From positions 26,542,862-26,606,861 of the forward strand of contig CM074511.1 in NCBI GenBank assembly GCA_037379345.1: a stretch of 64,000 nt of DNA, given 5' to 3'. The notes beneath the pieces are model-generated. The model had not been told where the DNA came from, ran no database searches, and worked only from the letters and a program-made list of their open reading frames with translations. Position numbers and translations under genes: made by a program. Source of the DNA: Perna viridis (lineage: Eukaryota). Shown here in pieces: positions 7,836-45,718 of the stretch (positions are counted from its first letter, which is position 1; the number at the start of each line of letters is the position of its first letter).

Positions 7836-8011
7836 ATTGTCTTCAAAAAATAGAATTGATTTGTTTCCGACTGAAAAAGAATACCTCCTTCACACAGACA
7901 CAGACACACACACACACACACACCACTGCAATCCTTCATTATAGGGAAGTATATTATTTGATGTATTGTAATAATTAACAAAAAACATGTATTTTTATTT
8001 ATCTTGTAGAA

Positions 8012-9784
8012 ATGGATCTAAAGATCAAAAGTGAATGTTCAAGCCTTGATCAATTTAGTCGCCACAGCAATGATTTCCATGACAACAGTCGCCACTCAGA
8101 TTATTCTAGTCCTGAGCACTCTGAGAGCTTAATTACAAACTTTGAATCATTTCGTATTGAAGGTGGATACAGTGATGTGACACTTGTTGTGGATGGTCGA
8201 CAGTTTCCTTGCCATAGAGTCATACTTGCTGCAGGGTCCAGGTACTTTAAATCAATGTTTAGCTCAGGGATGGAAGAGTGCAGAAAGAGCAAGATTGACC
8301 TTCAGCAAGTTGACTCAACTGTATTTGAGTATGTTCTCCATTTTATATATACTGGAAGAGTACAGATCACACTTTCTATACTACAAGATCTATTTCAACA
8401 AGCATACATGTTTCAAATTGAACCTCTTGTCAATCTCTGTGTTAAATTTTTCCGAGAGAATATGAATGAAACAAATTGTTTGGCTGCATTAATGCTTGCT
8501 GATACTCATGCACACACACAGCTGTATGATATCTCCAAAGAGTTGGCTTGCTTCCATTTCAAGACAATTATGCACGATGAAGATTTTTGTCGTCTTTCTC
8601 TTCAATGTGTAATGGACCTTCTTTGTGATCGCAGGCTTCGATGTGATGGAGAACATCAAGTTTTTGAATTAGCTATCAAATGGCTGGATTCTGATGGAAA
8701 TGAGGGCAAAAGAAAGAATCTCAGATTCAAGATTTTAGAGGCAGTTAAATTTCCTTTGATTAAGAAGGAGTACTTGTTGGATATTGTATCAAAATCCCCT
8801 CATATCCTTCAAGATGAGAATGGCTTCAAGCTTTATGAAGATGCCATCATGTATCATATGATTCCAAGTAGAAGACACATGTTGAACAGCTACCAAATAA
8901 CACCAAGATTGACATGTGTTGGTCATGAATGTGCCATACTGTTGGGTGGTAGACTAGCTGACGGACTTAGTATTGATGTCGAAAGTTTCAGATCTGACAC
9001 TGGAGAATTTTCATCATTGAAGCCACTCCCATTCAAGAAGCGTAATGAGTTTACTGCATGTGTTATAGGAAATGACATTTATGTCACAGGTGGTTTACGG
9101 AGTGCAGAGTTTTGGAAGTACGACTCTGCTTTCGAGACATGGTTAAGGGGACCAAGTATGCAAGTTGCACGCAGACGCCATGCAATGGCTGCTCAACAAG
9201 ACACCCTGTATGTATTGGGAGGGTTTGATGAAGATATGGTTTTGGGTTCAGTTGAAAAGTGGACCAATGGGAATGGTTGGATGGATGGTGGTAATTTATG
9301 CCATGCAGTTGAGAATATGGGATTCATAGCACATGATTCCAATATATACTTATTTGGAGGGAAAAACAATGATGAGGTTGTAACCAACACTGTACAATGT
9401 TTCAACACAGAAACTGAGACATGCACGATTCTCTCTCAGTCACTGCCTGCTTGTGACATGTGCCTTGGGAGTACAGTGCTAAACAAACAAATATATGTTG
9501 TAGGTCTAGAAGGAGCTTTCCGCTATACTCCAGAAACAGAAAAATGGGAGGTGTTACCGGAACTAATTTGTCCAAGAGATTTTGTTAGTGTGGCAGTCTT
9601 GGATGAGAAATTATACACATTTGGGGGTAGGAGAAGAGGGGCAAAAGATAGATTGTACACTGACATTATTGAGTGCTTTGATCCAAAGAAGAATGCATGG
9701 GAGAAAGTTGGTACCATTCCAGTCCCTATGTATTCCTATGGCTGTGTTAAAATCTTTCTCAATGAAAAACCACATTCAGACTAA
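8012..9784 (+). CDS. Kelch-like protein (BTB-BACK-Kelch repeats; CUL3 substrate-adaptor family), 590 aa, single coding exon
   Basis: BTB motif SDVTLVVDGRQFPCHRVILAAGSRYFKSMF; BACK region (NETNCL...VFELAIKWL); Kelch repeats with GG doublets and conserved Y/W (IYVTGG, LYVLGG, IYLFGG, LYTFGG); polypyrimidine+AG acceptor at 8008-8009 two nt before ATG implies an upstream non-coding exon. Confidence 0.95.
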   Translation: MDLKIKSECSSLDQFSRHSNDFHDNSRHSDYSSPEHSESLITNFESFRIEGGYSDVTLVVDGRQFPCHRVILAAGSRYFKSMFSSGMEECRKSKIDLQQVDSTVFEYVLHFIYTGRVQITLSILQDLFQQAYMFQIEPLVNLCVKFFRENMNETNCLAALMLADTHAHTQLYDISKELACFHFKTIMHDEDFCRLSLQCVMDLLCDRRLRCDGEHQVFELAIKWLDSDGNEGKRKNLRFKILEAVKFPLIKKEYLLDIVSKSPHILQDENGFKLYEDAIMYHMIPSRRHMLNSYQITPRLTCVGHECAILLGGRLADGLSIDVESFRSDTGEFSSLKPLPFKKRNEFTACVIGNDIYVTGGLRSAEFWKYDSAFETWLRGPSMQVARRRHAMAAQQDTLYVLGGFDEDMVLGSVEKWTNGNGWMDGGNLCHAVENMGFIAHDSNIYLFGGKNNDEVVTNTVQCFNTETETCTILSQSLPACDMCLGSTVLNKQIYVVGLEGAFRYTPETEKWEVLPELICPRDFVSVAVLDEKLYTFGGRRRGAKDRLYTDIIECFDPKKNAWEKVGTIPVPMYSYGCVKIFLNEKPHSD

Positions 9785-18700: not shown

Positions 18701-21700
18701 CAGCCAGTTTAAGCTGCTCATTTGACCAAACGTATCCTCTAGTGGGTAAACGGCCTCCACTTGGTCTGCCTAACTATTACAATCAGAGAAAGCATCAAAA
18801 CTTGCTCGACCCAATTCAGTTTTGCATCTCCAATATCACCTTGACGTTTAACGTTTTTCATTTCGACCTCGTCTTGCTCCGACAGCTGTCCTCAGAGTTC
18901 GTCTTGCCCATTTTCAATTCCATTGCTTCTGTTTTATAAACTTTCTCTACCATGCTTAATCGGGAATCGAGTGTATCATTTTCCTCTTCCCCCTCTTCTT
19001 CATCGGCCCATTTGAAGACTAAGCTAAAATCAAGTTTCTCAGTTTCGGGTGCTTCAGCTCTTTCTGTCCAGTTCAGTCTTGCAATGGAGTCTGCAGGTGT
19101 CGAGCCTGAGCTGAGTTCACCTTCCTTATCTGCTTCATATCTTTTGGCCTTGTTGTCCTCTTTAGCGGAGTCGACCGACGTCAAATATATCCTGCGGTCA
19201 TCTGCTCCGGCTGTTTCCACTCTTTTAGCGCAGCTCAATCCTTTAGAGGGATCGGCTGATGTTAAGACCAAACTTGATTCATCAGCCTCGGTTGCTTAAA
19301 TTTCTATGGTACAATTGGTCTCCAGCGGCAGTGAAGAGTTCTATCGGAGATCCATCAGGGTTGCAGTAGGCAAGTTCATCGAAGCATACATTGGGATGGT
19401 TTTTCCTCTCTACAATGCCTTCTTTGATGGCTTCAATTTTACTTTTTGTTTTAGCAACCTCGAAATCTACAAACAAAACAAAAAATCGTCTTATATTAAA
19501 GAATAAGTAGTTTTTCACTCACACACAACGAAATCTTCGATATGAGAATGTGGGCGTATTATGCAGTGGACTCATAAGCAATCGTTGATATTGTAATTAG
19601 CATGAATTCTTGGCCTTTTGATTTTTATAGACCTAATAAACGGCAATCTATAAGAGTCAAAACTATTTTCAAAAACATGCTGAATAAATAAATATTCGTT
19701 TACTTCCCAAAATAAATAATGTTGCTTTTTTACAAAAGTACAATAGCATACAGAAGACATTGTCTACTATACATGACAAGTATGTTGTCGTACCAGCAGA
19801 CAAAGCCCAAAACGACATTGTTTTTGTCTGCAAAACGTTTTATGTCCAATGTTTATTATCAGAAGTAGACGTAGAAAATAATAGCAGTGATAGGACCTAC
19901 ACTGCTACCACTCTCTCCAAAGAAGAGATTGTGGAAAACCATAAATCTGTGCTATCGTCTTTTGGTCTCTCTACCAAGGACGATGATTGTGATTTACCGT
20001 CCATGTACTGGATTCTTAAACTTCACAAGAATCCATACAAACAACGTTTCATAGCTGGATCTTCAAAATGTACCACCAAACCTCTTTCAAAACTTTTAAC
20101 TTCTATACTCACAACTGTCAAAGAGGGTCTACAGTTCTACCACAACACTTGTTACTCCCGTAGTGGTATTAATTCAATGTGGATCCTGAAAAATTCGAAA
20201 GATCTTTTGGAGACAATCAGTTCAAGACTATTATCTGAATATAATAGCATTAAAACCTATGATTTTACAACACCGTATACTTCTATTCCCCATACTCAGT
20301 TAAAATCCCGACTTAAAAACATTATACATCGTTGTTTTTCCAAAAAAGATGGTACACCTAGATACAAATATATAGTTCTTGGTAGAGATTCCTCATACTT
20401 TGTAAGAAATAATTCCAAATCATCTTCCAAATATACAGAGGAAGATGTTTACAAAATGCTGGAATTTTTAATCGACAACATATTTGTCCAGTGTGGTGGA
20501 CGTGTTTTTCAACAAACGGTCGGCATTCCAATGGGAACAAATTGTGCTCCTTTACTTGCTGACCTATTCCTTCACTCTTATGAGGCTGACTTTATAGCTG
20601 ATCTGATCAGAACAAAAATGTCGTTTGGCTAGATCCTTCAATCTCAGTTTCCGCTATATAGATGACGTATTATCTTTAAACAATCCTAATTTCGGGGATT
20701 TGATACATCGCATCTACCCAAAAGAACTTGAGATAAAAGATACTACAGACACTGTAAAGTCAGCCTCATATCTTGACGTACACTTAGAAATCGATGGTAA
20801 AGGAAAACTATTGACCAAACTTTACGACAAACGTGATGACTTTTCATTCAGAATTGTTAACTTTCCTTTCATCTGTGGCAACATCCCTTCTTCTCCTGCG
20901 TATGGAGTGTTCATATCACAACTCATACGTTATGCCAGAGCTTGCCGAAACTACGCAGACTTTTTGTATCGCGCTAGAACTCTAACAAATAGGCTTCTGG
21001 AACAGGGTTATGTTGCTACAAGATTGAAGTTTTATGGTCGTCATCATGAACTCGTGGATCGCTATGGTGTATCCATCAGCACCATGAAAACTGATGTATT
21101 CAACGGGTCATAGTTTTCCTTTCCTCGTTTGTCTACCCCGGACTTGACTTTTTATGAGCAACTCGGCGGGTGTTTCTAGAAAAGAAGAGGACGCTTACCC
21201 TACCAGTGCACCTGGTCCATGCTCCCAGTTTTTAGTGGAGTCCGAGTTGCTCAATTACTTTTGTTACTTTGTATGTATGATTTTAGTTAGTTTATGTTCT
21301 TTGTTGTGAATGTCTGTTTTCCATGTCTTGTCTTTGTCCCTGGATTACATTAAGCAAATTTTTGGTCGTTCCCTCCGCGGGACTCGAACTCGTACCGCTG
21401 TGACATCTATGGCAACACCGCCTGCACTAAGTCCAGCGCCCTAGACCACTCGGCCAGCTAGGCTATATAAAAATATAGCTTTCGCTGGCCGGGTGATTCC
21501 TCCTCGGTGTTGCCATAGATGTCACAGCGGTACGAGTTTGAGTCCCGCGGAGGGAACGACCAAAAATTTGCTTCGCAAATTTGACAGTTCTAACATCGTT
21601 GGGAATTTTTCAGACCCTTCTATAAGTTTACGTTATCTTCCCTGTATCAATTTGATCCGATGGAGCAGAGTAGTGAATAGAGTCGTCACATTCTGAGACG

Positions 21701-24700
21701 TTGTATAGTATTGATTTGTTGTGACATGCATCATTAATTTGATCCTCTATCCTACATAATAACACCTAGATGAACTGTCCCGTACTACCATACATCGTGT
21801 ACTAAGTTACAGCCCTAGATTAATCCTACGAGGAGGAATCACCCAGCCAGCGAAAGCTATATTTTTATATAGCCTAGCTGGCCGAGTGGTCTAAGCGATG
21901 GACTTAGTGCAGGCGGTGTTGCCATAGATGTCACAGCGGTACGAGTTCGAGTCCCGCGGAGGGAACGACCAAAAATTTGCTTTGCAAATTTGACAGTTCT
22001 AACATCGTTGGGAATTTCTCATACCCCCCCTATATATATATATATTACATGAAGTTTACATATAATGTCCATTGATTGAGAAATAATCACTAAAGTAATT
22101 TTTGTGTGCCATTGGCAAAAATTGCTCATGAGATTAACGTGCATTTCTCTTAATGTTATAGCTGTTTAATTATTCTGCAGATATGTAAGAACGCTGATTT
22201 TTTTAAAATCGCCAGTCTATATAGTATTTTCCACGGCTTATCTCAAAATGTGAATTTCTATCAATTTTAAGCATGACTATATGAAAATGATTCGTTTTTG
22301 AAGGTAAAATTAAGGGAGAGCTAACATGACACATGAAAATGGGAATTCAAGAACAACAAATTATGAAACGAAAACAATACAGATTCCTTTAAAAAAGATC
22401 ATACGGACAAAAACAAATTGATTAAAAAGAAGACATATCATGATCAATTAAAATATAGAACCAACTAACTTGATGAAATTCCTATACGCCTGCAAGTTCT
22501 ATACGAAGTATTTCAAGTATTCTGCTCTCTACTAGAAACGCTGCTTGTTGTGGTGGAAGATGTTATATAAACTTACGACGTCGTCATTGGAGTCCAGCGA
22601 CGTCACGATAGACAGACGCAAAGATGACGTTATTAGTGCATATTCATAGCATGTCGGAACTAATCGGAAAACAACTCCGAGTCGGCAAATTTCGTCGAAT
22701 TCAGATTCACAAATATATTTTATTTAATTATTTTTTTTTATTTATTGTTTAGACGTGAAAAAAAGAACACATTCAAATGACATTAAATATATATGGTTTA
22801 CACTTGTACGCTCGGTCTCGCAATTGTAGAATAAATGCACAAAAATCACTTAAAATACCAAGGATTATCGTGAACGAAATGGAAATGGTGCCGTAATACG
22901 AACCGGAAGAGGGTGTACTAGATCAAACACAGCGGAGGGCCAGAGAGGCTGTGTTGATTTAGTGAAGGACCTCTCAAGAAAAAGTAAAGTAAAAGTATAT
23001 ATTAGGCTCATCTAGAGCATTTTGAACATTTCGTTGTACTGGAAATATTCATTAAGAAAAACAAAAAAAAAAAACAAAAAAAAAACCAAAAAAACCCCAA
23101 GAAAACAAAAAAAAACAGCATAAGAACAATTATTAGGGACATATATCATATAAAATATGTGAGATAAAGAATAAGAGATGTCAGATACAAGATATAAGAT
23201 ATCCTATATGATTTTGTTAAGAAGATATATTACATAGTTGATAAAACATCTCATAAAGTATATATACGGCACGCCGTATATTCATATTTATCCCAATTCG
23301 TAGATATGTTCTATAATTTAGTAGATATATATTGCTTTTTAATAAGATATCTTATAGAATACACAAGATTTCTCATATAATAAATAGCTTATAAGATAAA
23401 ATATAAATAAAATTGTAAAAAATATCTCATAAAGCATATAATATATCATATACTTTATGATATTTATAAACTTTATAAGACATCTTATGAACATTATTAG
23501 ACATCTTATATACTTTATGAAATATCTTATATATTTCATAAGATATCTGATCAAATGTAATATATATATATATAAAATATCTGAGAAAAAAGAAGATATC
23601 TACAAGATTATATAAGATATCTACGAATTGGAATAAAAATAGATACGGCGTGAAGAAGGTAAGTACCAAATTTGATTATCATAATCTTTTTCGTTTATAT
23701 GATTTTACGCTTTGCCTTTGATGGGCAAATTATATCTAACTTTATTGACAATGTACTGTTGTTAATATATCGCTGCCTAGATCAACAGTAATATGTAAGA
23801 CTTCCCATAACACATGATGTAAGTCAAAGTTCAAACAATCACACCCGAACTGCATATGTAACTTTGGACGGAAAGAGTTTGAGCCAAACATATCTTGACA
23901 GAGGATATACATGTGTAGGACGTCACTGGCGCTCCGTCCATAATATTTTGTATACAGAAAAATAAAACTATAGCAAAATATTGTGGTGACTTCCACATAC
24001 ACAACACCTAGAGATTGTGACGGCCGTATATGTTTTTTGAGTGATGTCAAGATTCTATTTGATTTTGACCATTTAATGATGTATCAAGTAAGAAAAGAAT
24101 GTTTCATTTTTTATGTTTCATCGGCATGCAATTTTAAGCGTTGACCGTAACATAATCTCTTCTTTCAAATATGCAATCGGTCAACGCTTTTACACGTCGA
24201 TGAAACATAAAAAATGAAGCACTGTATTCTTTATAATTACATTGACACTTCCTCTAATTTCATTTCTTTTTTATTTTAAATATACATAGAAAACGGGCTG
24301 TACACGTGTGGTCCATATAGTCGTGGGCGTGGCCTATATATGTAGTGTTTTACTGACTCACGAAACATCACATGTAAAGGCGATTATCCAATGAGATGAC
24401 GTATTTTAACGATATTTACAGTAAATGTGAACACATTTTATTGATAAATATAATCATTTCTTACCCAAATTCCTTATTATATATATACATATATCTATAT
24501 TTATCTTCCGGCTTACCTTCGTTGTTTTAGTTCCATACACCGTAGATAGCTGGACGTTATCTGAAAATTTTCACAATAAATAGTTTAATTTGCATGCACT
24601 TGGGTGATGAAAGCTTTTTTTTTTCAAATTAACTGTTTAGAAATCAAATTTGTATAATGAATTGATAATATTTGCTATTGGTTGGAAAAGGGCTGACAAT

Positions 24701-27700: not shown

Positions 27701-30700
27701 AATGTTATCTTTGACATGAACATTGATTGATGTGAGGGTTCGAATGATCATATATCTTCACATAAGATTATAACACTTTTTTTTAAATCAACCAAGTTGA
27801 TTCAATTTTTATTGACAATACCAAAAGTCATTGAAAGAAGCCCATTTGGATTTGGTTTCCTATTTTGGTAGTTTTGGTTTTGAGTACTTATTGTATACAA
27901 TTAATATTTCCTTTTATTAAAATTCCTATATATTTTGATTATACTGCTGCTTATGCAGGGGCGGATCCAGGATTTGAGTTGGGGGGGGGGCGTTAATTGA
28001 ATTGAATGCCGTGCAAAGCAAGGCAAAAAGTATTATGGTGTGAACAATTTTTAAAAAAATTTGAGACCGATTAGGGGGGAGGCGTACGTCCGGTATGCCA
28101 GTCCTTGGATCCGCGCCTGTTATGGGAGGTTACACATTGAAATACGTGTACAGCATATCAAAATTTGTAATATATATGATTTGTATTTTTTTTATGTTTA
28201 AAACATTGCATACTTCTTTAATATTTGACACATTCAAACAAATAATAGACCATCTTAAACAGGTCATCCATTAAACTATTTAAAATGGGGACGAATTACC
28301 TTTGTGCTTCCAAACTATCGGCAGTAACGGTATGCTTTAGGACAACCAAGTGTTTGTTTGGGGTCAAGGAGTCGACCCTTATCATTGCAGACGTTCCATT
28401 GGCTATTGCCGTCGCAGACTGAACTCTTAGTACCACCCACATAATGTATCGACTCTGATCGTACAGATATTTAGAATTTCTAACATACAAATTCCCAGAT
28501 GGAGATTTAAAATCAAATACTCCACCGCTATTCATTGTAATGTACTGTATGGTATCTGTTGGTGCAGTAGCAATCCCAAAATCCAGTGGCGTAAGTGTTG
28601 CTATTACGTCATTGTTTATTGCGTTGGTTGGACATTCCAGGGAAAAGTAATGTGACGATGTTGTAGGTGAATTTGGATCCACGTCATTGACATCTATTAT
28701 ATTAATATTAATTGTACTTATTCCACTTAAGGAAGGTGTTCCTCCATCCTTTGCATATAGAAAGAATGAAAATGAAGTGATTGTTTCGAAGTCTGGCAAC
28801 GATTTCAATGATAGTTTTCCTCCAGCGTCTATGCTAATCATTCCTGTTGCTATAGTATTAGCCGGGTCTATTTCGTATGACACTGTTCCAAAGGCACCAG
28901 AGTCAGCATCATTAGCAGTTACCGTAAAGAGGGAAAGTCCGACAGGACTATTTTCAACCACCGAAATTGTTTTAGAAGAGACAGTAAATACTGGGTTGTG
29001 ATTGTTCATATCTGTTACTGTAATACGTACAGCTTTGTTGTATTTCAATGCAGTATTTCCTTGATCTTCTACATAAACTGTGATGTAGTATACAGACTTG
29101 AGAGAATGCTCCAAGAGCTTATTGGTCTTTATAAGTCCGTTGTTTAAAACGATAGCCAAGTCATTATTAGTATCGCCAGATCTTATGGTAAAATGAATCG
29201 TTGCTCCTGGTGCATGAATCGGATCCGGTGCTACAGTGCCTATCGTTGTTCCAACAGTTGCATCCTCTGATACGGTAAAAGAATAATCGTTAACAACTGG
29301 TGTCAATGGAGGGTCAACAGTAATTTGCACCGTTGCTGTAGCCGTTCTTCGAGTTGATCCTTTATCAATTGCGTGAATTATCAGGTTGTAGACGTCGCTT
29401 GCGGGCGCTAGATTACCAATTGTCTTTATCTCGCCGGAAATAGTTTGAATTTTGAACAAAGAATCCGTATTTCCGCTTATAATGAAGAATTCTATCTGAC
29501 CGTTAGCACCGATATCAGCGTCAGAAGCGGTGATTGTAGTTATACTTGTTCCGGTAGTCGAAGTTCGAGAAATTGTCAAGGGTATAAATGATCCAGAAGT
29601 TATAACTGGGTCGTTATCGTTGGCATCAGTTATTACAATGGTTAAACTTGTAGTACCAGTGTTTATCGGAAGTCCACTATCCGTTGCACGTATCACTAGA
29701 AGATAGTTGTCTGTTGTTTCTCTGTCCAATATTCCAGCAAGTGTTAAATCACCCGTTGCCGGATCTATCTGAAACCTGAAATCACCATTTCCACTGCCGA
29801 TGCTGTAAGTTAAGATACGATTCGGACCAGTGTCACCGTCAGTGGCCCGAAAGGGAAAAATGACATCACTAACGGCTGTCAATTCTGAAAGGCTTAAGGA
29901 ATATAACGGTTGGCTAAATGCTGGAGATTGATTGTTAATATCATTTACTGTTATTTTGACCTTGCTAGTTCCCGTCAAAGAAGGACTACCACCGTCTAAT
30001 GCTGAAACCGTTAAATAATATAGACTTTGCGTGGATGCGTCTAAAACAGAATTTGATTTTATAACTCCAGTGGCAGGATCTAAGCTAAAATGTGCATTGT
30101 TTTCACCAGCAGTTATAGTATACGTAATGGCACTGTTAGTACCTTCATCATTATCAGTGGCGACAATAGTTCCAACGAGTGTATTTGTTGTTACAGTTTC
30201 GTCAACTGAAAAGAGATATTCAGCACTCCCAAATATCGGAACTATATCGTTGACATCATTGAGGTTTATTGTCAACACTAAAAAATCTGTTTTTGCTGCA
30301 TCATTCCGGTTTTCAGCTCGTATTAGCAAAGAATATGATGCAGTTGCTTCTCTATCTAATGAGCCAACAACCTGTATTTCCCCCGAATAAGGGTCTATGA
30401 AAAACTTTCCATTTGTATTTCCTGACTGAATTGTGTATTTAAGGTCCGCTGGTGCTCCGGTTGTACCTTCAACGGCACCATCTTTGGTTGCATCGCAGTC
30501 GTATATTATGATCCCAAGGTCAGTACTTTCTATGATGTTTAATGTGTCAGTGCCAGCGATATAAGAAGGTTCAGGATATATTGGGTTGACACCGATGATG
30601 ATAGAAGTTGATGATGATCTAGGGGGTGTGCCTTGATCTTTAGCTTCTACAACGATGATGTACTGACTTGTTGTCTCAAAATTCAGAGCACTGTTTACCT

Positions 30701-33700
30701 CGAGAGCCAACCCGTCCAATCTAAAGGCGTTGCCTGTGTTACCACCTGTGATTTTGTAAAGCAAGTTCGCATTTACCCCATCATCAGCATCACTACAGAC
30801 AATGGTCGTTATCATGGCACCGAGTGCTTCGTTTTCATCTACATTGAATGTCCCAACTGATGGTGTAAATTGGGGCTGGTTATCATTCTCGTCTGTAACT
30901 TGAATATTCATTGTGGCAGTTGTAGAACCACCAAGTCCATTATTTGCTTGAATCGTTAGTGAATATGATGCAGTAGTCTCTCGGTCAAGAAGTTTTGAAA
31001 GAAAAATGCCACCCTTATTTTGATCAATGATAAACGACCCGTCATTTCCAGCTGTTATTGAATAGGATATTGTTGCACTAGCATCCAGGTCTTGTGCTGA
31101 CACAGTAAACACCTTCGATCCAATTGGAGTGCCTTCTGATAAAGATTGACTGTATATTCCACCAGGAGCGGTAGAAAGAAATTCTGTCGGAAACTCGTCA
31201 AAGTCTGAAATTGTTATATAACATGTTGTTGTGCCTGTCAATGCAGGCGTTCCACCATCTTCTGCTGTAACAATAAGTGTATACGACGAAGTTGTTTCAC
31301 TGTTAAGTGCAGAATTCAATACTAGTTTTCCAGCTGCATTAAGTAAGAAGTCACCTCCAGGATCACCATTTAGGATGTGATAGGTTAATTCAGCGTTCAA
31401 CCCTAAATCAGTATCGGTGGCTGCTAAACTTATTATTTCCGTATTAGGAGCAAGATTTTCAACAATAGGGATATTGAAGAAGTCATTTGTAAACGCAGGT
31501 TTAACATCATTTGCATCTAAGACATGAACTGTCAATGTGGCTTCTTCAAACGTCCAGCTGATTGCATCAGTTATCCTCATTGTTAATGTGTAAGAAGCAG
31601 TTGTTTCTCTATCAAGTTTATTTAAGAGATATACAGCGCCTGTGTATGCGTTTATGCTGAACTTATTTGCATCATTTCCACTTTGAATGGAAAATGTTTT
31701 TGAAGCGGTAGCAGAATTTCCAGTTACAGTGTATACGATTGTTCCAATTGACGTAGCTTCATTTACATCAACAGCATCTGGTAACACATTGAAGGTTGGA
31801 TCAGACACCACTGTAACTTTGACACGAAGCACAGATGTTTTTGGAGTTCCTGCTTGATCTGACGCTAAAATCTCTAAATTGTAAGAAGGTTGGCCTAAAA
31901 GTTTGGCAACTACAATGTCCCCATTTGCTGCGAGACTAAAGTCCGAATTTGTGTTTCCGGAGACAAAACTGTATGTTATTTGCCCATTCACTCCTACGTC
32001 ATTGTCAGAACATCCTATCGTATGTATTACATCGCTAACAGTTACAGGAGGCGTTAAGGATACACTAGCGACATTAGTACAACTCGGATGAAATTCGTTA
32101 ACATCATCAACATTTATTGTGAGGGTTGTTTGAGAAGTTCGCTTGGTTGCAGTCGATTGATCTATTGATTTTATACCGATGGTGTATGTAGTTAATGTTT
32201 CACTGTCTAGCATGGATGCTACTCTTATTATGCCTGTTGTTGGCTCAATACTAAATACTGTCATATGAGACGTCAAAGTAAATTCAACTCGACCATCATC
32301 CCCGGCATCGTTATCAGTTGCAGCAACTTTAAATATTGATGTTCCTGTAGAAAGTTAACAGATAAAAGAACTATAAGCGTGTTGGATTTAACTGAAACAT
32401 TTTAAACCATTGAATACAAACTGTATTATTCGTGTATTTAACACTCTGAAATAGTCTTTACTAACGATTAAATCTGTAATTCTAAATTACAAAACGTAGT
32501 TACTTGGATAAACAAACAAACAGGTTAACCAATGTTTTTTTTGCATTTGTTTCTGTTTGTTGTCACTGAAAACATTCTTTCGACAATTCTATAATATTAT
32601 CGCTATTTTGTTTAAAATCCCTTTGATCTTGCTACACGATAATTTTCAATCTCACGCCAGTCGCGTGAGAGTGAAAATTATCGCTAGTTTCTATGTCCCC
32701 GCGTGACATACAAGCAACATCGTAGGAATATTTGACGACCCAAATAACCGTCTGTTTGTTTACTGCGTATGAAATAATGGCTAATTTGTGGCAATACTTT
32801 CTAGTCTACAATGGAAAATGATTAAATACGGTAACTTACCCGATTATAATGAATTATTTCACAAATTTTAAACGCGACTGTCATAGTTAACCGATTTTTT
32901 TTTCAAAAAATGTGCATCACAGCTGCACAACATACGTGACGTCACGTAGCACGTCGCCGAAAAATAGTCCCGAAAGGAAATTTTGCAGCGCTTACAAAAC
33001 TTACATATTTAGGTCAAGAAAACTGAAAATAAAAGAAAACTAATACCTTACAATTCAGCAGAACAGCGATAAACAGATTTTTTTTTTCAACTCGCGGGAG
33101 TTTCTCATATCCATCTCGACGAGATAAGAATGAGAAACTCCCTCTCGTTGAAAAAATATTAAATAATCTAATATTATCAATGAAATTTCTTTGACTATTA
33201 GCTAGTGGTAAATTGTTTCGTGAGTGAGAAATTGACATACCAATCGCAGTATTTTCTTGCACGTTTTTCGAGTATGGTGTTCCAGTAAATAAAGGAGAAA
33301 ACTCGTTCACCGGAGACACTGTTATTAAAACTGTTGTCGTTCCCGTTAGGCTTGGTGTCCCTGCATCTCTTGCTTCTACTATAACAGTACATGCTGTCTT
33401 ACTTTCAAAATCCAAATTATTTGTAAGTGATATTACCCCACTTACAGAATTGATAGACATTTTACAACCAGTAATTGTATGACCACCTGTAAGAATATAG
33501 ATGAAAGATAATGATTAAGGAATGATAAATTTACAAAACAAAAAAGAAAATTGATTTTAAAATGGAAATTTTAGAAAAACTTATGAAACATATGTATAGA
33601 ACAATTTATATTGTTTAACATGTTAGGTAAAGTTTACGTTGAAAGAGTAATCAAGGTAACCAAGGTTATAGCGGTAATCAAAGAGTAGTCAAGAGAACCA

Positions 33701-36700
33701 AGGTTATAGCGATAATCAAAAGAATGTAATCCAGGGACGACGACAAGACATGGAAAACAGACATATACAAAAAAGAACATAAATTAACTAAAATCATACA
33801 TACTGTAACAAAAGAAAATGAGCAACTCGGACTCCACTAAAAACTGGGAGCATGGACCAGGTGCACCGGTAGGGTAAGCGTCCTCTGCTATTCTAGAAAC
33901 ACCCGCCGAGTTGCTAATAAAAAGTCAAGTCCGGGTAGACAAACGAGGAAAGGAAAACTATGACCCGTTGAATAAATCAGTTGAAATGAGGAAAATAAGA
34001 AAAAGAGCATGTCATTCTCGAATTTTGGTAGAAATTGACCAACTGGAACTTTGGGAAGCCATCTTAAACCGGTGTGACATACACACAAGGAATGAGGCCA
34101 CATAAAACATTTGAAAACTAACATTGTTTTCCAGGGTTTAAATATATTATATGCAATAGCGAAACTTATAGTTTTGAACTTGTATAATTAATTAAATATG
34201 AAAAATGTATTTAAGGAATATTACAATTTAATTTTTAAGGGATGCAAGTACAAATTTTGAAAATGAATTTGTACCCAAAACACTTTTTTGTCTGGGATTA
34301 TTTGATTCGCGGACTGTCGACCAATTCATAATAACTACTAATGGGGTTTTTAGTGTCATTGACTACTCTTACCAGTCTCGCACGGACGGTATTTTTCATT
34401 CATAATAATGACGCCACAGTACCAATATACACAAATTAACCTGGTTTGTTCAAAGAGAGACAATTAATCAGAAAGCTTGTTATAAATCAAATTAAATAAT
34501 TTACCTGTTAATACATAAGTTATTTGATTATTTACACCAGCATCGTCCGAATCGACAGCAGATATCGGCGGTGTCATGGTAACAGTACCAATAGCATGGT
34601 CTTCAGATAATGCAACCGTATAAACATCCTGTAAAACCAAAGAAATTAAATACACAGAAAAAAATTATAAATGGTCAAAAATCAAAATTGTTTCCATTAT
34701 TTTTACTATTTTCGACGTAACAAATTTTAAATTAAGATTGCCTTGATCGAGTTTCCGGTCAATTGCTGAATGTACATTTTCCCGAAATAATTTTCCTTTT
34801 CAAAATAGGTCACATGATTAAAATAGGCGACTTTCACATTCGCCATTCACGTCGAATCTGGTGGAAACTGATATACAGTTTTACACTAAACCAGGAAAGA
34901 ATGTAGAATTTGAAGACCACTAAACAGTAATAGTTATGTGGAAATACGTCTCCGATCACAAAATGTCTGAATTTTTTCTGTAATATTTATATCATTTAAA
35001 AAATTATAGTAATCGAATCCAGTTTCTGTTCCCCATGTTTCCCACTGCAATGTCTTCCTTCCGATCTTGCGTCTGTTGACCACAGTTGACCTCGATATGA
35101 CTGTAGAATTTTACCGGAACAGAAGTGAACGTGAAAATCGTCTATCATTTACCTGTGTAAACGCTGGCGCGACATCATTTATGTCCGTCACAGTAATGGT
35201 CAAGGTTCCAGTAGTCTTTGATGCTGATAAATTTGACGAATAAGCAGAAATTGTAAGAGCATGCGTGGTAGCGGCCTCTCTGTCAATACCAGGTGATGAA
35301 ACGTACACCACTCCTGATTCATGTGAAAAAAATGAAGATATCTATGCAATACAATTATCCACGAATTCTCCAATGAATGGATTACAAAATTCAACTATAT
35401 AGTCAAGTAACTTTTTAGGTACTTCACAACGGTTTGCATTTTTTTGTAGGATAATTTGGTACAGTACCGATCTTTTTTTTCAATTTTATTTTGCAAAGGA
35501 AAATAAGTATTCGAAGTAGTACATTATTTCTGAACGAAAAACAATGTGGATCAATGGGTAAATACTCTATTTACAATAGAGAAAAGAGAAGATCTATGAA
35601 CCATGTTTTGAATACGTGTAAATTTAACAAATAATTTTCTTTTGGACAGACAACTTAAGTAGCTGTCTTTGTAAGAATCACGCAAAATCTGAAAAATGTG
35701 ATACATCCCCAAAAAGGATACATATTTTTATTTTTGTAATTAAGTTGTTTTATGGGTCTATATTATGAAATGTGTAATTATTCATTCAAATTTACCTGCT
35801 CTTAAGAGATACTCAACATTAAAAATGCAATAGCTTCTATTGTATTTGAGTGTCATTTACAGAGTTATCTCCCTTAATTTTGAATTCTACAGTGCATTCT
35901 ATACAATTTTTATCTCCTATGAGCACGGGTTATACGAAAAACCAAATGTTAATTTCTGTTTACTGAAGCATTTAAAACAAAATATCAAAAATAAAAATAA
36001 AAATATGTAGGCTTTCCAACCATGTATCACATTTTGCATGATTCTTAGCTGGAATGCTACTTAGGTTATTCAATTGAAATCCACAGGGTAAAGTACAGAA
36101 AATTTCACCTGAATTGGCATCAATTCCAAAAAGATTGGTAGCAGTATCAATGCCATATGTTATTTTTGAATGTGTTGATCCGGCTTTGTCGGCGTCTGTT
36201 GCAGTAATTGTAACGACTGGAGTTGCCGCCGCACTGTTTTCTGCGACAGCTTACAAAAAATAAACACAAATTTAAAGCGGAATAAGAGCATTATTGTTTT
36301 GTTATTGAAGTTTTCTTCAACTACCAGTATACTTTATATGTATAAAACATGCAACTAACATTTTTTTTTAACATAAGCTGTCGACATTTTATTAACTTAA
36401 TAAATATAGTGAAACCCGTTTTAATCAAACACCTATGGGACCATGGAATTTGATTGGTTCAGACAGATGTTCGTTTTACTTAGAATCAAAGTACATTTAA
36501 ATTGATGGTTTTCAAAAGTATTTCGGTATTTGGCTTTCGGATTATTCAGGGTTAAGTTTCGACAGTTTTAATTCGGTTATTGATTTCGTTATTGGATTTG
36601 TTTTCGAATTTAAATGAAATTTATATTTTTTACAAACTGCAAATGTTCTTATTTGATATCTGGAAGTTTAAAATAGAATTGCTTTTATTTTGAAATTGCC

Positions 36701-39700: not shown

Positions 39701-42700
39701 TTATTACGCGTGTTTAAACTATAATGCATAAAAATGTTATAAATAGGATTTAAGTTTACTGTGTATGATGAGGTTGGCAAGGGTGCGTCATAATCAAATA
39801 ATTTGGCCAATCGTATTTCTCCATTTACTCCATTGGCGCCTGTTTTAGTGACACTGAAGTAGCCATCGCCATTTCCAGAAACAATGCTGTATGTCACCTG
39901 ACCATTTGCACCTGAGTCGGCATCTGTACACGTTAAAGTTATTATCAGATCACCGACAGCTGCCGACTCCCTGACCTCCTTGGCATATGCTGAAGAAGTG
40001 CAGACCTATAAAACGTAAAATTCAATACCTTATTGAAAAAAACCATATCTTTTAAGAGTAGAAATTTAAATTTAAGTTATCTTTAGGATTCAGATTTTAT
40101 GATATTCAAATTCTGTACTATATGATAACACAAAGGTAAGACATTGATTGGTCGATGTTGTGTGTTTAATAGTCATATAGATATAATTTTTTAACTCGAC
40201 TATTACGTTACACTTGAAATTAAATATTTGACTCAAATTATGTATTAATTAAATTGTAGAGTAAAACATGAAGCTTGCCAAGTTTTAGCTGCATCATATT
40301 TTAAGGTTTTAATGGCTGTATTCAATCGTTAGAAAAATGAAAATACCTCTACTTACTGGTTTATTATCATTCTCATCAGAGACTGTAATGACTAAATTGG
40401 TTTGTGCAGTTTTTGCAGGAGTAAAACCAGTATCTACAATCTTTAGAGCAATAGTATGTGTTTTGGCAGCTTCATAGTCCAGACTTTCTTTTGCTGTTAT
40501 TTCACATGTTACCGGATCTACGGTTATTTTATTGGAATCTGGTGGTCCATCTTTTAAGTTTAATTGAAAGAAAAGAAATGCCATATTTTTAACTATAGGA
40601 GTGTTAATTTAAAGTCGTTTTCGGCAATTTTTTTCACCAACGAAAATCGTTAAGTAAATTAGTTTTAGCATTGTTGCAATATCGCCCAACCGAGATATTT
40701 TTGCACATTTATTAGATTTACACAAGAATTATACATTATGTAAGTCATTTGTATGTAATACCTACAAACACAGTAAAAGCTTTGTTTCGTTCATCAACTT
40801 TAGTGTTAAAACATATGTACAACTGGAAGGGTGATACTTATTTGGATATCTGTGAAAATGTTTCGAATAAAACAAAATGGAAATACAAAGTTTACTGAAA
40901 ATAATCTAATATTCATTACAAAACAAAATAAGACATTCGAAACATTTGAATTTACGAAAAAATACAAATTTCTATATTTAAATCTTTATCACTAGTTTTA
41001 TGAACTATGATGTAGATAAAACTTTGTAAAAATTTAGGAGCATTTGCAAATAGTATAATTTCAAATGCAATTATTATTTTGTACCTCTAGATTTAGTTTA
41101 CCCACCAACTTTTAAACACATGAAGCTTTGAAAATTAAAATTATCGTCTATCACATCCATGTCGAAAGGAGTCGGTGTATATACGAACGACCCGAATGCT
41201 CTATTTTCAGGCAATGTTGTTGTATAAGGGGTCCCAAGGAATGAAGGGTCAATGTCATTAACTGGGTTTACTTTTAAATTGACAACAACATTAGCTGCAG
41301 CTGACAGAGGTGGAGTACCTCCATCTGTAACTTGTACTGTTATCTAAAAAATTGAAATAATTGGTGTAGTTATAGAGTATAAAAATATGTAAGCATATTT
41401 TATTAATTATGGGTTTCAAAACAGAGATAAGCCAACATATGATAGTATAAATCTGACAACAGAATAATTGTAGATAAGTTGCAGAAGTTGTCGTGCTAAA
41501 TACATCCCCACTCATACAGAAAATTGCTATCGGATATCACTTAAAATCGCTTACAATGTATGTTCCATCTATATACAGCAAAACATTGAATTTGAAATCA
41601 GTCCATATTTTGTAAGCCGAGATTTTCGTGACGAAAATTTTCTCTATCATTCCATATATATTGAAAAACGTCAAAAGTCCCACAAAACAGAAAGTGGAAA
41701 TCGGACAGCATCCAAAATTATTTACAATATGTCCTCATGTATATAAAGCCATACGTCAATTTAATCAATCCATGGGGAGCCAAGATAACTGCGACGAAAT
41801 GCGGACGGCCGGGAGGACTATGTGACTCCACCCACAAGTGGAGTGGGGTTTAAATGTTTGATTTGAAAAGGCTATAAACTTTAACGCAGAATCAAGGCAC
41901 AATGAGCAAGACATAACAGTAGCCATTCTAGCCAGTTATCGAAGAGTAATCAAGAGAACCACAATTCTAGCGGAAATCAAAAGAATGTAATCCAGGGACA
42001 AAGCCCAGACATGGAAAACAGATATACACAACAAAGAAAATAAAATAACCAAAATAATACATACTAAGTAACAAAAGTAAATGAGCAACTCGGACTCCAC
42101 TAAAAACTGGGAGCATGGACCAAGTGCACCGGTAGGGTAAGCGTCCTTAAGTTATCTTTTTGCTTTGAAGCTTTGAACGAAAAGAGATTTATTCTTTCTT
42201 CCCATTTTCATCAAAATACAGAATACTAATTATAATCAAAAAAATAATTTCTTTATAGACAACGTATCTTCCCGGCTTAGGGTGCATTATGGGGATTATA
42301 ACAGCACATACCTGTAAACTGTGAGGAGTAGTAAAGTCGTCATAGTCTATTGCCACAACCAAACTTAAAGCTCCCGCTCCATTGATGCTAAAGTGACCAA
42401 GATCATTTCCCGAAATAATACTGAAGGTTAGAGTGCCATCCGGTGGGGCATCACCATCCGTGCAGGGTAATGTCATTAAAACTGTTGTTGCAGTTGTCGA
42501 CTCATCGAATGCATGTGAAACAGCGTATGAAGTGCACGTTGGATTATTGTTTTGGCCTGCAAAAAAGTCACAAATAAAAATGAAACTTTTTGAGCTAGAA
42601 TATATCAGCATATGCAGTAAAAATCACATACTATAAAATTCAACCTTTTGAAATGTATTTCCCAATTTTTTCTAGCAAACCAATGAAAACTTATTGATTT

Positions 42701-44546: not shown

Positions 44547-45718
44547 GTCCAAGACTATTACTTGAATATCATAGCATTAAAAACTATGATTTTTCAACAC
44601 TGTATACTTCTATTTCCCATACTCAGTTAAAATCCCGACTTAAGAACATTATACATCGTTGTTTTTCCAAACAAGATGGTACACCTAGACACAAATATAG
44701 AGTTCTTGGTAGAGATTCCTCATACTTTGTAAGAAATAATTCCAAATCATCTTCCAAATATACAGAGGAAGATGTTTACAAAATGCTGGAATTTTTAATC
44801 GACAACATATTTGTCCAGTGTGGTGGACGTGTTTTTCAACAAACGGTCGGCACTCCAATGGGAACAAATTGTGCTCCTTTACTTGCTGACCTATTCCTTT
44901 ACTCTTATGGTGCTGACTTTATAGCTGATTTGATCCGAAAGAAAGAATATCGTTTGGCTAGATCCTTCAATATCAGTTTCCCTATATAAATGATGTATTA
45001 TCTTTAAACAATCCTAATTTCGGGGATTTGATATATCGCATCTACCCCAAAGAACTTGAGATAAATGATACTACAGACACTGTTAGGTCAGCCTCATATC
45101 TTGACCTACACTTAGAAATCGATGGTAGAAGAATACTATTGACCAAACTTTACGACAAACGTGATGACTTTCCATTCAGAATGGTCAACTTTCCTTTCAT
45201 CTGTGGCAACATCCCTTCAGCACCTGCGTATGGAGTGTTTATATCACAACTCATACGTTATGCCAGAGCTTGCCGAAACTACGCAGACTTTTTGTATCGC
45301 GCTAGAACTCTAACAAATAGGCTTCTGGAACAGCGTTATGTTGCTACAAGATTGAAGTCATCACTACAGAAGTTTTATGGTCGTCGTCATGGATCGTTAG
45401 GGTGTATCCATCTGCACCATGAAAACTGATTTATACAACGGTTCATAGTTTTCCTTTCTCGTTTGTCTACCCCGGACTTGACATTTATGAGCAACTCGGC
45501 GGGTGTTTCTAGAAAGGCAAAGGACGCTAACCCTATCGGTGCACCTGGTCCATGCTCCCAGTTTTAGTGGAGCCCGAGTTGCTCATTTGCTTTTGTTACT
45601 TTGTATTTATGGTTTTGGTTACTTTATGTTCTTTGTTGTGTATGTCTGTTTTCCATGTTTGGTCTTTGCATTCTTTTGATTACCGCTATAACCTTGTTTC
45701 CCTTGATTACTCTTCCAA
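44547..45718 (+). mobile_element. 5'-truncated Penelope-like retroelement, copy 2 (between the two cadherin genes)
   Basis: Same RT motifs with a frameshift around the YIDD site (44980-44995); complete 3' UTR. Confidence 0.9.

Follow-up and report, generated by a model that had tools for sequence, protein, structure and literature searches.

A high-copy, non-coding 410-bp element of Perna viridis with a tRNA-Leu-derived head, the insertion signature of Penelope-like elements and a likely Neptune-like partner

The window, a stretch of 64,000 nucleotides from contig CM074511.1 of Perna viridis, contains a complex of repeats next to a Penelope-like element (PLE). We numbered the repeat unit such that u1–u409 correspond to window positions 21618–22026. 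The following features were located:

19467..22469, minus strand: probable host-gene intron enclosing the whole complex (3,003 bp; GT..AG on the minus strand)
19754..21351, plus strand: Naiad-clade PLE copy, 5'-truncated, frameshifted and lacking its last ~43 nt
21352..21506, minus strand: inverted arm covering u212–u365, with an outer end that matches neither family end point
21505..22026, plus strand: main arm of 522 bp, u297–u409 plus one full unit, i.e. 1.28 units
21610..21624, plus strand: internal copy of end site A, ..CAGACCCTTCTATA, a putative start of reverse transcription
21692..21707, plus strand: end site B, ..TGAGACGTTGTATA, 83–84 nt past site A and similar to the Neptune-like end ..TAGACGTTTATA
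21799..21910, plus strand: predicted long hairpin, in which a degenerate inverted A-box/D-arm copy pairs with the tRNA head
21872..21960, plus strand: tRNA-Leu-derived head, located mid-unit (A box 21879–21889, B box 21943–21954)
22019..22045, plus strand: terminal copy of site A with a (TA)n tract behind it (22031–22045)

Repeat mapping showed a direct repeat of 113 nt (21505–21617 and 21914–22026, 96% identity, spacing 409) as well as two inverted arm pairs (21352–21439 with 21895–21982, and 21442–21506 with 21829–21893). The inverted arm meets the main arm at a 2-nt CG overlap, 21505–21506. This confirms the tandem-plus-inversion architecture with a flip at CG that had been proposed in a preliminary description of the sequence, and the arrangement is a trait of the whole family. 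The head-to-tail array, put there at about 1.25 copies, measures 1.28 units and does contain the A and B boxes. The adjacent retroelement indeed stops short of its normal end, 40 nt before the conserved ..GATTACTC or about 43 nt when the final T's are included. In one contig from a sequencing run guessed to be RNA, position 19466 is joined to 22470. An empty allele of the site was not seen in three runs of one sample, which is uninformative. We read the complex as a single head-to-head insertion of a 410-bp element that is non-coding and present in high copy number; the locus itself, with its Naiad junction, is ordinary.

A 23-mer of the unit has 3,707 exact matches in the genome versus none for the reversed control; the family comprises thousands of copies. 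A unit length of 409 bp, as first described, holds for the window copy. For the family it is about 410 nt, since most copies have one more G. The longest stop-free stretch of the unit is 83 codons. A metagenome scan with the same 23-mer gave no matches, with near-genome records possibly absent from the scan. We mapped the ends of segments in 62 position-ordered loci (70 fetched, of which 8 were overlapping or segmentally duplicated and were removed). These gave 140 segment 3' ends, 83 of which fall on one of two sites 83–84 nt apart, 40 on site A (u399–u8) and 43 on site B (u82–u90). The 5' ends are scattered over the unit and occupy 20 of 21 bins of 20 nt. Among 70 complexes a head-to-head junction is present in 32 and an arm exceeding one unit in 22, giving partial tandems that resemble pLTRs; the longest array seen has 3.25 units (L077).

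When all unique loci were considered, 83 head-to-head junctions were available. Both arm ends are canonical in 27 of them, and 21 of these pair site A with site B (p = 0.003). The inversions therefore carry a one-sided tail as in PLEs, where tails are one-sided (PMC8557442) and, according to the experiments described in PMC11167929, defined by two internal starts of reverse transcription. One non-canonical arm end, like that of the inverted arm in the window, was found at 46 of the 83 junctions, and 1–4 nt of overlap at 34. TATA follows within 12 nt after 66 of 83 canonical ends, and (TA)n is present at 60 of 77 unit ends. At the four comparable sites among 163 complexes tested we observed target deletions of 33, 43, 58 and 158 bp and no target site duplication (TSD). 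The insertion signature (tandems, 5' truncation, inverted arms, one-sided tail, no coding capacity) supports classification of the unit as a non-autonomous Penelope-like element. The preliminary reading of a PLE-type element that does not code and shows partial tandems, inversions and permuted ends agrees with the end mapping: 5' ends are permuted nearly everywhere on the unit and two 3' ends are fixed. The end mapping and the comparable sites contradict the opposite case, in which copies would be monomeric SINEs with a tail, a TSD and a constant 5' end.

The head was aligned to the tRNA-Leu(TAG) and tRNA-Leu(AAG) genes called by ARAGORN in the same genome. A first search pattern for host tRNA-Leu had given only copies of the element (12 of 49 loci examined); a second one found the genes. 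Over the A box and D arm 22 of 24 nt are identical. The head had been described as Ser/Leu-like. The Leu part stands, whereas AAGCGATGG, the Ser-like letters, is seen only in the last copy in the window. A tRNA gene at this position was rejected, since ARAGORN calls no foldable tRNA in the window or in any of 16 loci scanned. The sequence preceding the head had been said to fold back onto the A box; this fold is real and spans more than was claimed (21799–21910), with a predicted energy of -61 kcal/mol and a z-score of -6.8 on the family majority sequence. A T5 run (21862–21866) lies in its loop, at the presumed transcription start. A further T5 run (u398–402) separates the head from both end sites; 192 of 221 copies have it intact, and it is likely a Pol III terminator. 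There is a modest excess of 5' ends at the tRNA head. Ends at u398–402 (8 of 206 versus 0–3% elsewhere) show no clear enrichment. The intact run and the end counts thus give Pol III transcription no direct support. As a rule for the choice of end sites, accessibility of UAUA was rejected, because the UAUA of site B is predicted to be paired, as are unused UAUA motifs.

Diagnostic positions were compared between units. Differences amount to 13 of 155 positions for consecutive units, 42 of 161 for opposite arms and 36,044 of 77,413 for units of different loci; the difference in allele sharing between consecutive and inverted units is significant (p = 3e-5). Of 47 arms that reach the tRNA head, 38 carry on upstream of it, and 1,033 exact matches in the genome span that point. 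Arm stops are enriched at u236–255 (10/47, p = 0.003), as a linear 5' end or stalling at the hairpin would give. Allele sharing together with read-through of the presumed promoter start favours re-copying of one RNA past its own start, which may have been closed, nicked or multimeric. The circular or multimeric template suggested before is favoured in this respect, and the RNA may have been a circle.

The best-surviving alternative agrees that a PLE mobilises the unit and proposes a linear multimeric transcript, made by Pol III or by Pol II reading through tandem source loci, without a circle or a jump from one end to the other. A homogeneous source array would lead one to expect just as much sharing of alleles by consecutive units, arrays reach more than three units, no ribozyme was found in the unit that could produce ligatable ends, and a linear multimer is the model put forward for the Sm-alpha tandems in the review PMC6765202. 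However, such an RNA would have to come from arrays of ~570 nt or more, found in about 8 of 70 complexes, and its transcription would have to pass three T5 runs. Copying of linear RNAs with 5' truncation would presumably shrink the arrays in every round unless they were rebuilt. In addition, length variation of the T/TA loop, where the RNA ends are presumed to lie, affects 34 of 102 copies versus 13 of 198 full-length T-runs at u398; this variation might be a junction scar, although slippage explains it as well. We regard the linear multimer as a rather unlikely but serious contender.

Regarding the enzyme, the element next to the complex had been taken as the autonomous partner of the unit. 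It carries a DKA motif, and its RT is followed by a stop without a C-terminal endonuclease; longer copies of the family have a GIY-YIG domain at their N-terminus, a Cys finger and a CxC linker. By these features, which are diagnostic in PMC8557442, it is a Naiad, an assignment based on motifs. We also found a second family that encodes an RT, then a Cys finger and then a C-terminal GIY-YIG domain, with an open frame of 843 aa at locus L238. The motifs of this frame (ADKG, CRPCGDKRCKTC, YLLQCRCGMQYVGET) differ from the Hydra motifs given in PMC8557442. From its RT, CX2-5CxxC finger, C-terminal GIY-YIG and DKG we call the family Neptune-like, as it may belong to Neptune or to Nematis. A 24-mer of it has 333 exact matches in the genome, so that by exact-motif counts the unit outnumbers it about tenfold.

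Several properties connect the unit with the Neptune-like family. Its two end points are 83 nt apart, versus 84 in the unit, (TA)3 follows 13 of 18 and 10 of 15 of its ends, respectively, and five of six of its inversions pair a tail with no tail. The unit lies within 110 bp of Neptune-like copies at 14 of 29 sampled loci, as compared to none of 29 loci with Naiad ends (p = 1.5e-5; the Naiad loci are best-scoring matches, not position-ordered). Two loci (L214, L225) show 5'-5' joins and mosaics of both elements without a TA spacer. Most joins pass through a TA tract, so a common target alone explains much of the co-location. The likeness of the sequences themselves is weak. When the tails were aligned end to end the score was matched by 3 of 2,000 shuffles, and when the first Neptune-like end was slid over both strands of the unit the best position was site B, with a score of 31 versus 27.2 ± 1.4 (top 30) for 60 shuffled units; the Naiad end region reached 29 in this sliding test. 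Unanchored local alignment of the Neptune-like tail to the whole unit was not significant (60 versus 52.9 ± 4.5, top 70). Weak GIY-YIG matches at L076, L119 and L133 indicate that the genome may hold further TA-targeting PLE families. Judged by spacing, (TA)n, end motif and co-location, all of them circumstantial, the Neptune-like family fits far better than Naiad as partner of the unit.

Naiad as the partner or a second one, with the window junction as a template switch between two RNAs, seems improbable. No other RT family seen comes close to it in abundance (17,976 exact matches of its 3' 22-mer), Naiads of other species often prefer (TA)n targets (PMC8557442), and one other copy of 29 (L041) ends at the same base as the window copy. 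Unit complexes directly adjoin Naiad at 7 of 49 outer 5' edges, in some cases head-to-head (L107, L136) and in some via the natural 3' end of Naiad (L128). Against an edge-density null this enrichment is significant (p = 3e-6; 0.6 expected), but it was dropped after a coverage control, which presupposes target deletions: Naiad covers 14% at 30 bp versus 9–14% at 200–1,000 bp. Naiad and unit have no sequence in common (scores of 22–24 versus shuffle means of 23–24). The Naiad family end is conserved in 30 of 30 matches at 29 loci, (TA)3 is found at only 1 of 30 such ends, and the Naiad tail repeat is 38 nt long (33642–33720), not 83. Lastly, the Naiad-unit junction of the window occurs exactly once in the genome. 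The proposed pairing with the adjacent element is therefore not borne out by common sequence, ends or junction counts, and Naiad is likely an uninvolved neighbour, clipped when the unit inserted.

The unit had also been described as retrozyme-like. The type I hammerhead that defines retrozymes is missing: CUGANGA, C.GA.GA and CUG..GA cores are absent from both strands of the doubled unit, in the majority sequence and the window copy, and an Rfam scan returned no ribozyme family at E-values up to 5. The GAAA/CUA hairpin pointed out earlier has hammerhead-like letters with no CUGA core ahead of it. A true non-LTR retrozyme whose ribozyme motif is unrecognised or dimer-dependent would be in line with the resemblance of the unit to the mussel retrozymes of 350–390 bp described in PMC7229834, in size, in forming tandems and in its rod-like fold (z = -4). 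Rfam also misses the hammerhead-like core in the 3' UTR of the Neptune-like family (CUGA.GA, a short stem and a GAAA core, with a weak stem I), which points to low sensitivity to minimal motifs. In view of the missing cores we consider a retrozyme slightly more improbable still than mobilisation by Naiad. An ordinary tRNA SINE (SINE2) or satellite, with tandems and palindromes made by recombination or by Helentron-type amplification at the DNA level, has in its favour the A/B-box head and the unequal recombination to which bivalve SINE tandems and palindromes are attributed in the text of PMC11481361, but it is largely refuted by the end mapping and very improbable, as there is no fixed 5' end, the head lies mid-unit and is read past by most arms, two alternative 3' ends are paired across inversions, TSDs are missing at the comparable sites and no constant terminal module was found around the repeats.

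We consider it likely that the unit was copied into (TA)n by a Neptune-like PLE enzyme encoded elsewhere, that its RNA was re-read past its own start and that Naiad is a bystander. In the proposed mechanism RNA polymerase III would, somewhat more probably than otherwise, transcribe the unit from its internal A/B boxes and through one T5 run. The Neptune-like RT/GIY-YIG protein would quite probably nick both strands of TA-rich DNA and begin reverse transcription within the RNA, at a pair of AGAC-N5-7-UAUA sites that imitate its own two, usually with one arm per site, leaving an 83-nt 'tail' on one side only. The long hairpin may keep the RNA ends together, so that the RT circles a closed or nicked ring and produces permuted arms of 1–3 units; for this step the chances seem even, and multimeric read-through RNA would be the alternative to the ring. 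At this site the end of Naiad was quite probably lost to a deletion of the target that removed 43 nt or more.

Several known systems resemble the unit in part. As summarised in the review PMC6765202, Sm-alpha and Sj-alpha of schistosomes are likewise short, tandem-prone and non-coding with a Pol III-type promoter inside the repeat, and an upstream copy can transcribe the next one, as the unit might; they differ in carrying a self-cleaving hammerhead, and the review text names no PLE partner. Animal non-LTR retrozymes are described as tandem units of 300–400 bp, proposed to be PLE passengers with circular RNA; unlike the unit with its tRNA-Leu head, they contain a type I hammerhead and derive from PLE pLTRs (PMC7229834; bioRxiv 10.64898/2026.07.22.740005), and the words 'tRNA' and 'promoter' are absent from the main text of the preprint. 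MRC1 and other non-autonomous Chlamys elements are non-coding PLE passengers with pLTRs, head-to-tail copies and no canonical hammerhead. They belong to green algae, have an N-terminal-EN partner and resemble their autonomous family at the 3' end, whereas the unit is like its presumed partner in motif and spacing only; a tRNA head is not mentioned where PMC8557442 describes them. In PAc, as reported in PMC11167929, two internal RT starts also set an optional tail, both strands of an AT-rich target are cut and extended, and hammerhead cleavage is dispensable in vitro. Its starts lie in an AC-rich stem-loop without target homology and its tails are 30–40 nt long, whereas both starts of the unit end in UAUA, able to pair with a TA target, and the tail has 83 nt. 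Cassandra, Helenus and Ajax are non-autonomous with a Pol III promoter in the terminal repeat and a borrowed non-LINE RT, but according to the description in PMC10886601 they are LTR elements with a PBS and a 5-bp TSD that are moved by Gypsy or Copia. In the literature searched, with Repbase and Dfam outside the search, we found no description of a PLE passenger that lacks a ribozyme, has a tRNA head and is assigned a named partner; the family may be listed under another label in the supplements to PMC8557442, PMC11481361 and the bioRxiv preprint. Tentatively, the unit might represent a distinct class of animal retroelements: ribozyme-free PLE passengers driven by Pol III, with a unit RNA closed into a circle covalently or by base pairing, and recognised by a copied pair of start sites at the exact 83-nt spacing of the partner instead of by a common 3' tail.

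Penelope-like elements are the closest relatives of telomerase. How they select an RNA, and how their tandem and inverted insertions arise, is, going by the discussion in PMC11167929, still largely open. That the unit keeps only the motif pair and its spacing in common with the presumed partner points to a minimal cis signal, and a passenger of 410 nt provides a natural and short substrate for testing in vitro. If the proposed reading is true, SINE-type parasitism, in which a tRNA promoter is combined with a borrowed RT, would include, besides LINEs and LTR elements, also PLEs without a ribozyme.

The complex in the window has the tandem-plus-inversion positions of the preliminary description: a 113-nt direct repeat recurs at a spacing of 409, and the inverted segment (21352-21506) overlaps the direct arm by the CG microhomology described at the flip. 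With the unit numbered u1-u409 (21618-22026), the order is Naiad up to 21351, u365 to u212 inverted, u297-u409 plus a full unit, and (TA)n. Judging by one contig of a presumed RNA run that joins 19466 to 22470, the complex seems to lie inside a 3,003-bp intron (19467-22469; GT..AG) of a minus-strand host gene; one exon would span about 18858-19466 and the next begin at 22470. Further features of the window are:

7979-9784, plus strand: BTB-BACK-Kelch gene
28296-32354, minus strand: single-frame gene with 12 cadherin domains
57206-61243, plus strand: single-frame gene with 12 cadherin domains
56770-57035, minus strand: second, shorter unit copy (u241 to about u90) flanked by two TA tracts
33642-33982: Naiad fragment, its own 38-nt tail repeated
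41984-42147: Naiad fragment
44547-45668: Naiad fragment
51941-53032: Naiad fragment
62984-63145: Naiad fragment

Including the fragment at 19754, Naiad makes up 7.6% of the window. The shorter unit copy lies a short distance upstream of the cadherin frame starting at 57206.

In the 723-Mb genome, a 23-mer from the unit is matched exactly 3,707 times (reversed control: 0). Position-ordered matches on contig C1 were used for end mapping; two earlier samples consisted of best-scoring matches and were biased. After removal of 8 overlaps or segmental duplicates from 70 fetched loci, 62 loci with 70 complexes and 140 segments were analyzed. This mapping of start and end points, proposed in the preliminary description as a check, gave two fixed 3’ end sites and variable 5’ ends: 40 of the 140 segment ends fell on site A (u399-u8), 43 on site B (u82-u90) and 57 were scattered, the latter partly representing internal pieces of mosaics, while 5’ ends were spread over 20 of 21 bins. 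TATA follows 66 of the 83 canonical ends; inside the unit it is confined to u4, u87 and u241-254, the first two being the end sites. Head-to-head junctions were present in 32 and arms longer than one unit in 22 of the 70 complexes. Across all unique loci we counted 83 head-to-head junctions, 27 of them with two canonical ends, and A was paired with B in 21 of these 27 (p 0.003). Penelope-like insertions are described as partial tandems with an inverted 5’ copy and a one-sided tail (PMC8557442); this tail corresponds to the sequence that separates two internal RT starts (PMC11167929). The insertion pattern of the unit is the one described for Penelope-like elements (PLEs), so that the architecture proposed from the window extends to the family in its partial tandems, head-to-head junctions and A/B tail pairing.

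In 6 of 163 complexes the two flanks each had a match in another repeat copy, and 4 of these complexes were informative. At these four sites 33-158 bp of target were lost and no target duplication was found; a short TA run lay at the cut in two of the four empty-type sites. The unit shares its tRNA-type head with SINEs, but an ordinary SINE, expected to have a fixed 5’ end and a target site duplication, was rejected on the dispersed 5’ ends and the four sites free of duplication. One complex (L145:1241-2096) is inserted in Naiad sequence, of which 158 bp were deleted, and ends in (TA)19 without counterpart at that point of Naiad; TA tracts may therefore lengthen during or after insertion.

A flank screen revealed a second repeat at unit edges, a Neptune-like family, which is a better partner candidate than Naiad. 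It has an 843-aa open RT-finger-GIY-YIG frame and a 3’ UTR with a hammerhead-like core (CUGA.GA/GAAA) and an 83-nt tail. Its two end points, each preceded by TTTAGACG, are 83 nt apart, compared with 84 nt for the AGAC sites of the unit, and (TA)3 follows 13 of 18 and 10 of 15 of these ends. Inversions paired a tailed with an untailed arm in 5 of 6 cases. Thirty position-ordered loci were fetched and one overlap was removed; of the remaining 29, two of them discovery loci, 14 had the unit at most 110 bp away, whereas none of 29 Naiad loci did. Most joins between this family and the unit run via a TA tract, which shows a common target; a few are direct 5’-5’ joins or mosaics (L214, L225). The end-to-end alignment score of the two tails was equalled by 3 of 2,000 shuffles and the best match to the Neptune-like end on the unit is site B; an unanchored search of the Neptune-like tail against the unit was not significant. 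The sequence likeness is weak, though located where expected. The Neptune-like family is represented by L238, L237, L241 and L229-L235, and seven near-identical copies are clustered on contig C10 (39.72-39.91 Mb). The position of L238 is:

G000:C1:67574240-67578255, minus strand: Neptune-like L238

Weak GIY-YIG matches (30-33%) at L076:2148-2417, L119:2431-2703 and L133:2283-2519 may mark further PLE families.

The preliminary description had paired the unit with the adjacent RT element (19754..21351). This fragment has a DKA motif and no endonuclease downstream, and longer copies of its family carry an N-terminal GIY-YIG, a Cys finger and CxC; judged by its sequence it is Naiad by the criteria of PMC8557442. 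Naiad is highly abundant, with 17,976 exact matches of a 3’ 22-mer, and ends in ..GATTACTCTTT; (TA)3 follows 1 of 30 ends. The proposed pairing was not supported: direct comparison found no sequence common to Naiad and the unit, their junction in the window is unique in the genome, and adjacency is near background coverage. Naiad adjoins 7 of 49 outer 5’ edges of unit complexes, an apparent enrichment over fragment-edge density which was rejected given a coverage of 9-14% of positions 200-1,000 bp from the same edges and target-deleting insertions. We read the window Naiad as a chance neighbor clipped by deletion, although broken ends may now and then capture Naiad cDNA. At L202:1500-2960 and L128:2173-2556 the natural 3’ end of Naiad directly abuts a 5’-truncated Neptune-like copy or unit at the truncation point, perhaps because Naiad can prime on broken ends.

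The head of the unit, its A/B-box region, shares 22 of 24 nt with host tRNA-Leu(TAG) and (AAG) genes across the A box and D arm, and the B box matches. An actual tRNA gene was nevertheless rejected. The A-box/D-arm region is repeated in inverted, degenerate form in the 70 nt upstream, and the predicted hairpin (-61 kcal/mol, z -6.8) is possibly a fossil of an old head-to-head insertion. Tandem arrays with the tRNA-Leu pattern occur at G000:C6:6.63-6.78 Mb (60 matches, spacing about 1,087 bp; 2 of 3 loci gave a call, both with anticodon TAG) and C7:14.45-14.55 Mb (at least 40 matches, spacing about 700 bp; both of 2 loci with anticodon AAG).

Which RNA is copied was addressed by allele comparison. 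Diagnostic positions differed in 13 of 155 comparisons between consecutive units of one arm, 42 of 161 between opposite arms and 47% between separate loci; rare alleles were shared in 154 of 804, 52 of 863 and 1.5%, respectively. Most tandem units therefore go back to a single molecule or to one homogeneous source, and the two arms of a complex often to two. If a Pol III transcript began near u250 and terminated in the T5 at u245-249 of the following unit, its length would be one unit and the hairpin would keep its two ends together. The presumed start is crossed unbroken by 38 of 47 arms and shows a threefold excess of stops, and the loop at the presumed RNA ends is more variable in length than the other T5. 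The conserved T5 at u398-402 counts against this model, as it would have to be read through. Chances for re-copying of the same molecule appear evenly balanced, and a covalent circle, at about half that likelihood, is rather doubtful; closed circle, nicked circle and multimer are all possible templates.

The unit resembles non-LTR retrozymes (PMC7229834; bioRxiv 10.64898/2026.07.22.740005) and the Sm-alpha element (PMC6765202) in how it works, as far as the available parts of these sources describe them, but differs in the hammerhead that defines both. A motif scan of both strands found no hammerhead core in the unit and Rfam reported no ribozyme, so that the label retrozyme-like fails on its defining feature; the scan carries more weight here, because Rfam also overlooked the Neptune-like core. 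Non-autonomous PLEs without hammerhead are known in algae (MRC1; PMC8557442, in part). The main text of a bivalve SINE survey (PMC11481361), in its accessible portion, does not mention Penelope, and our search of published papers found no account of a tRNA-headed, hammerhead-free element of PLE type. The unit combines a SINE-type head with retrozyme- or Sm-alpha-like behavior in hammerhead-free form, a combination apparently new to the literature searched.
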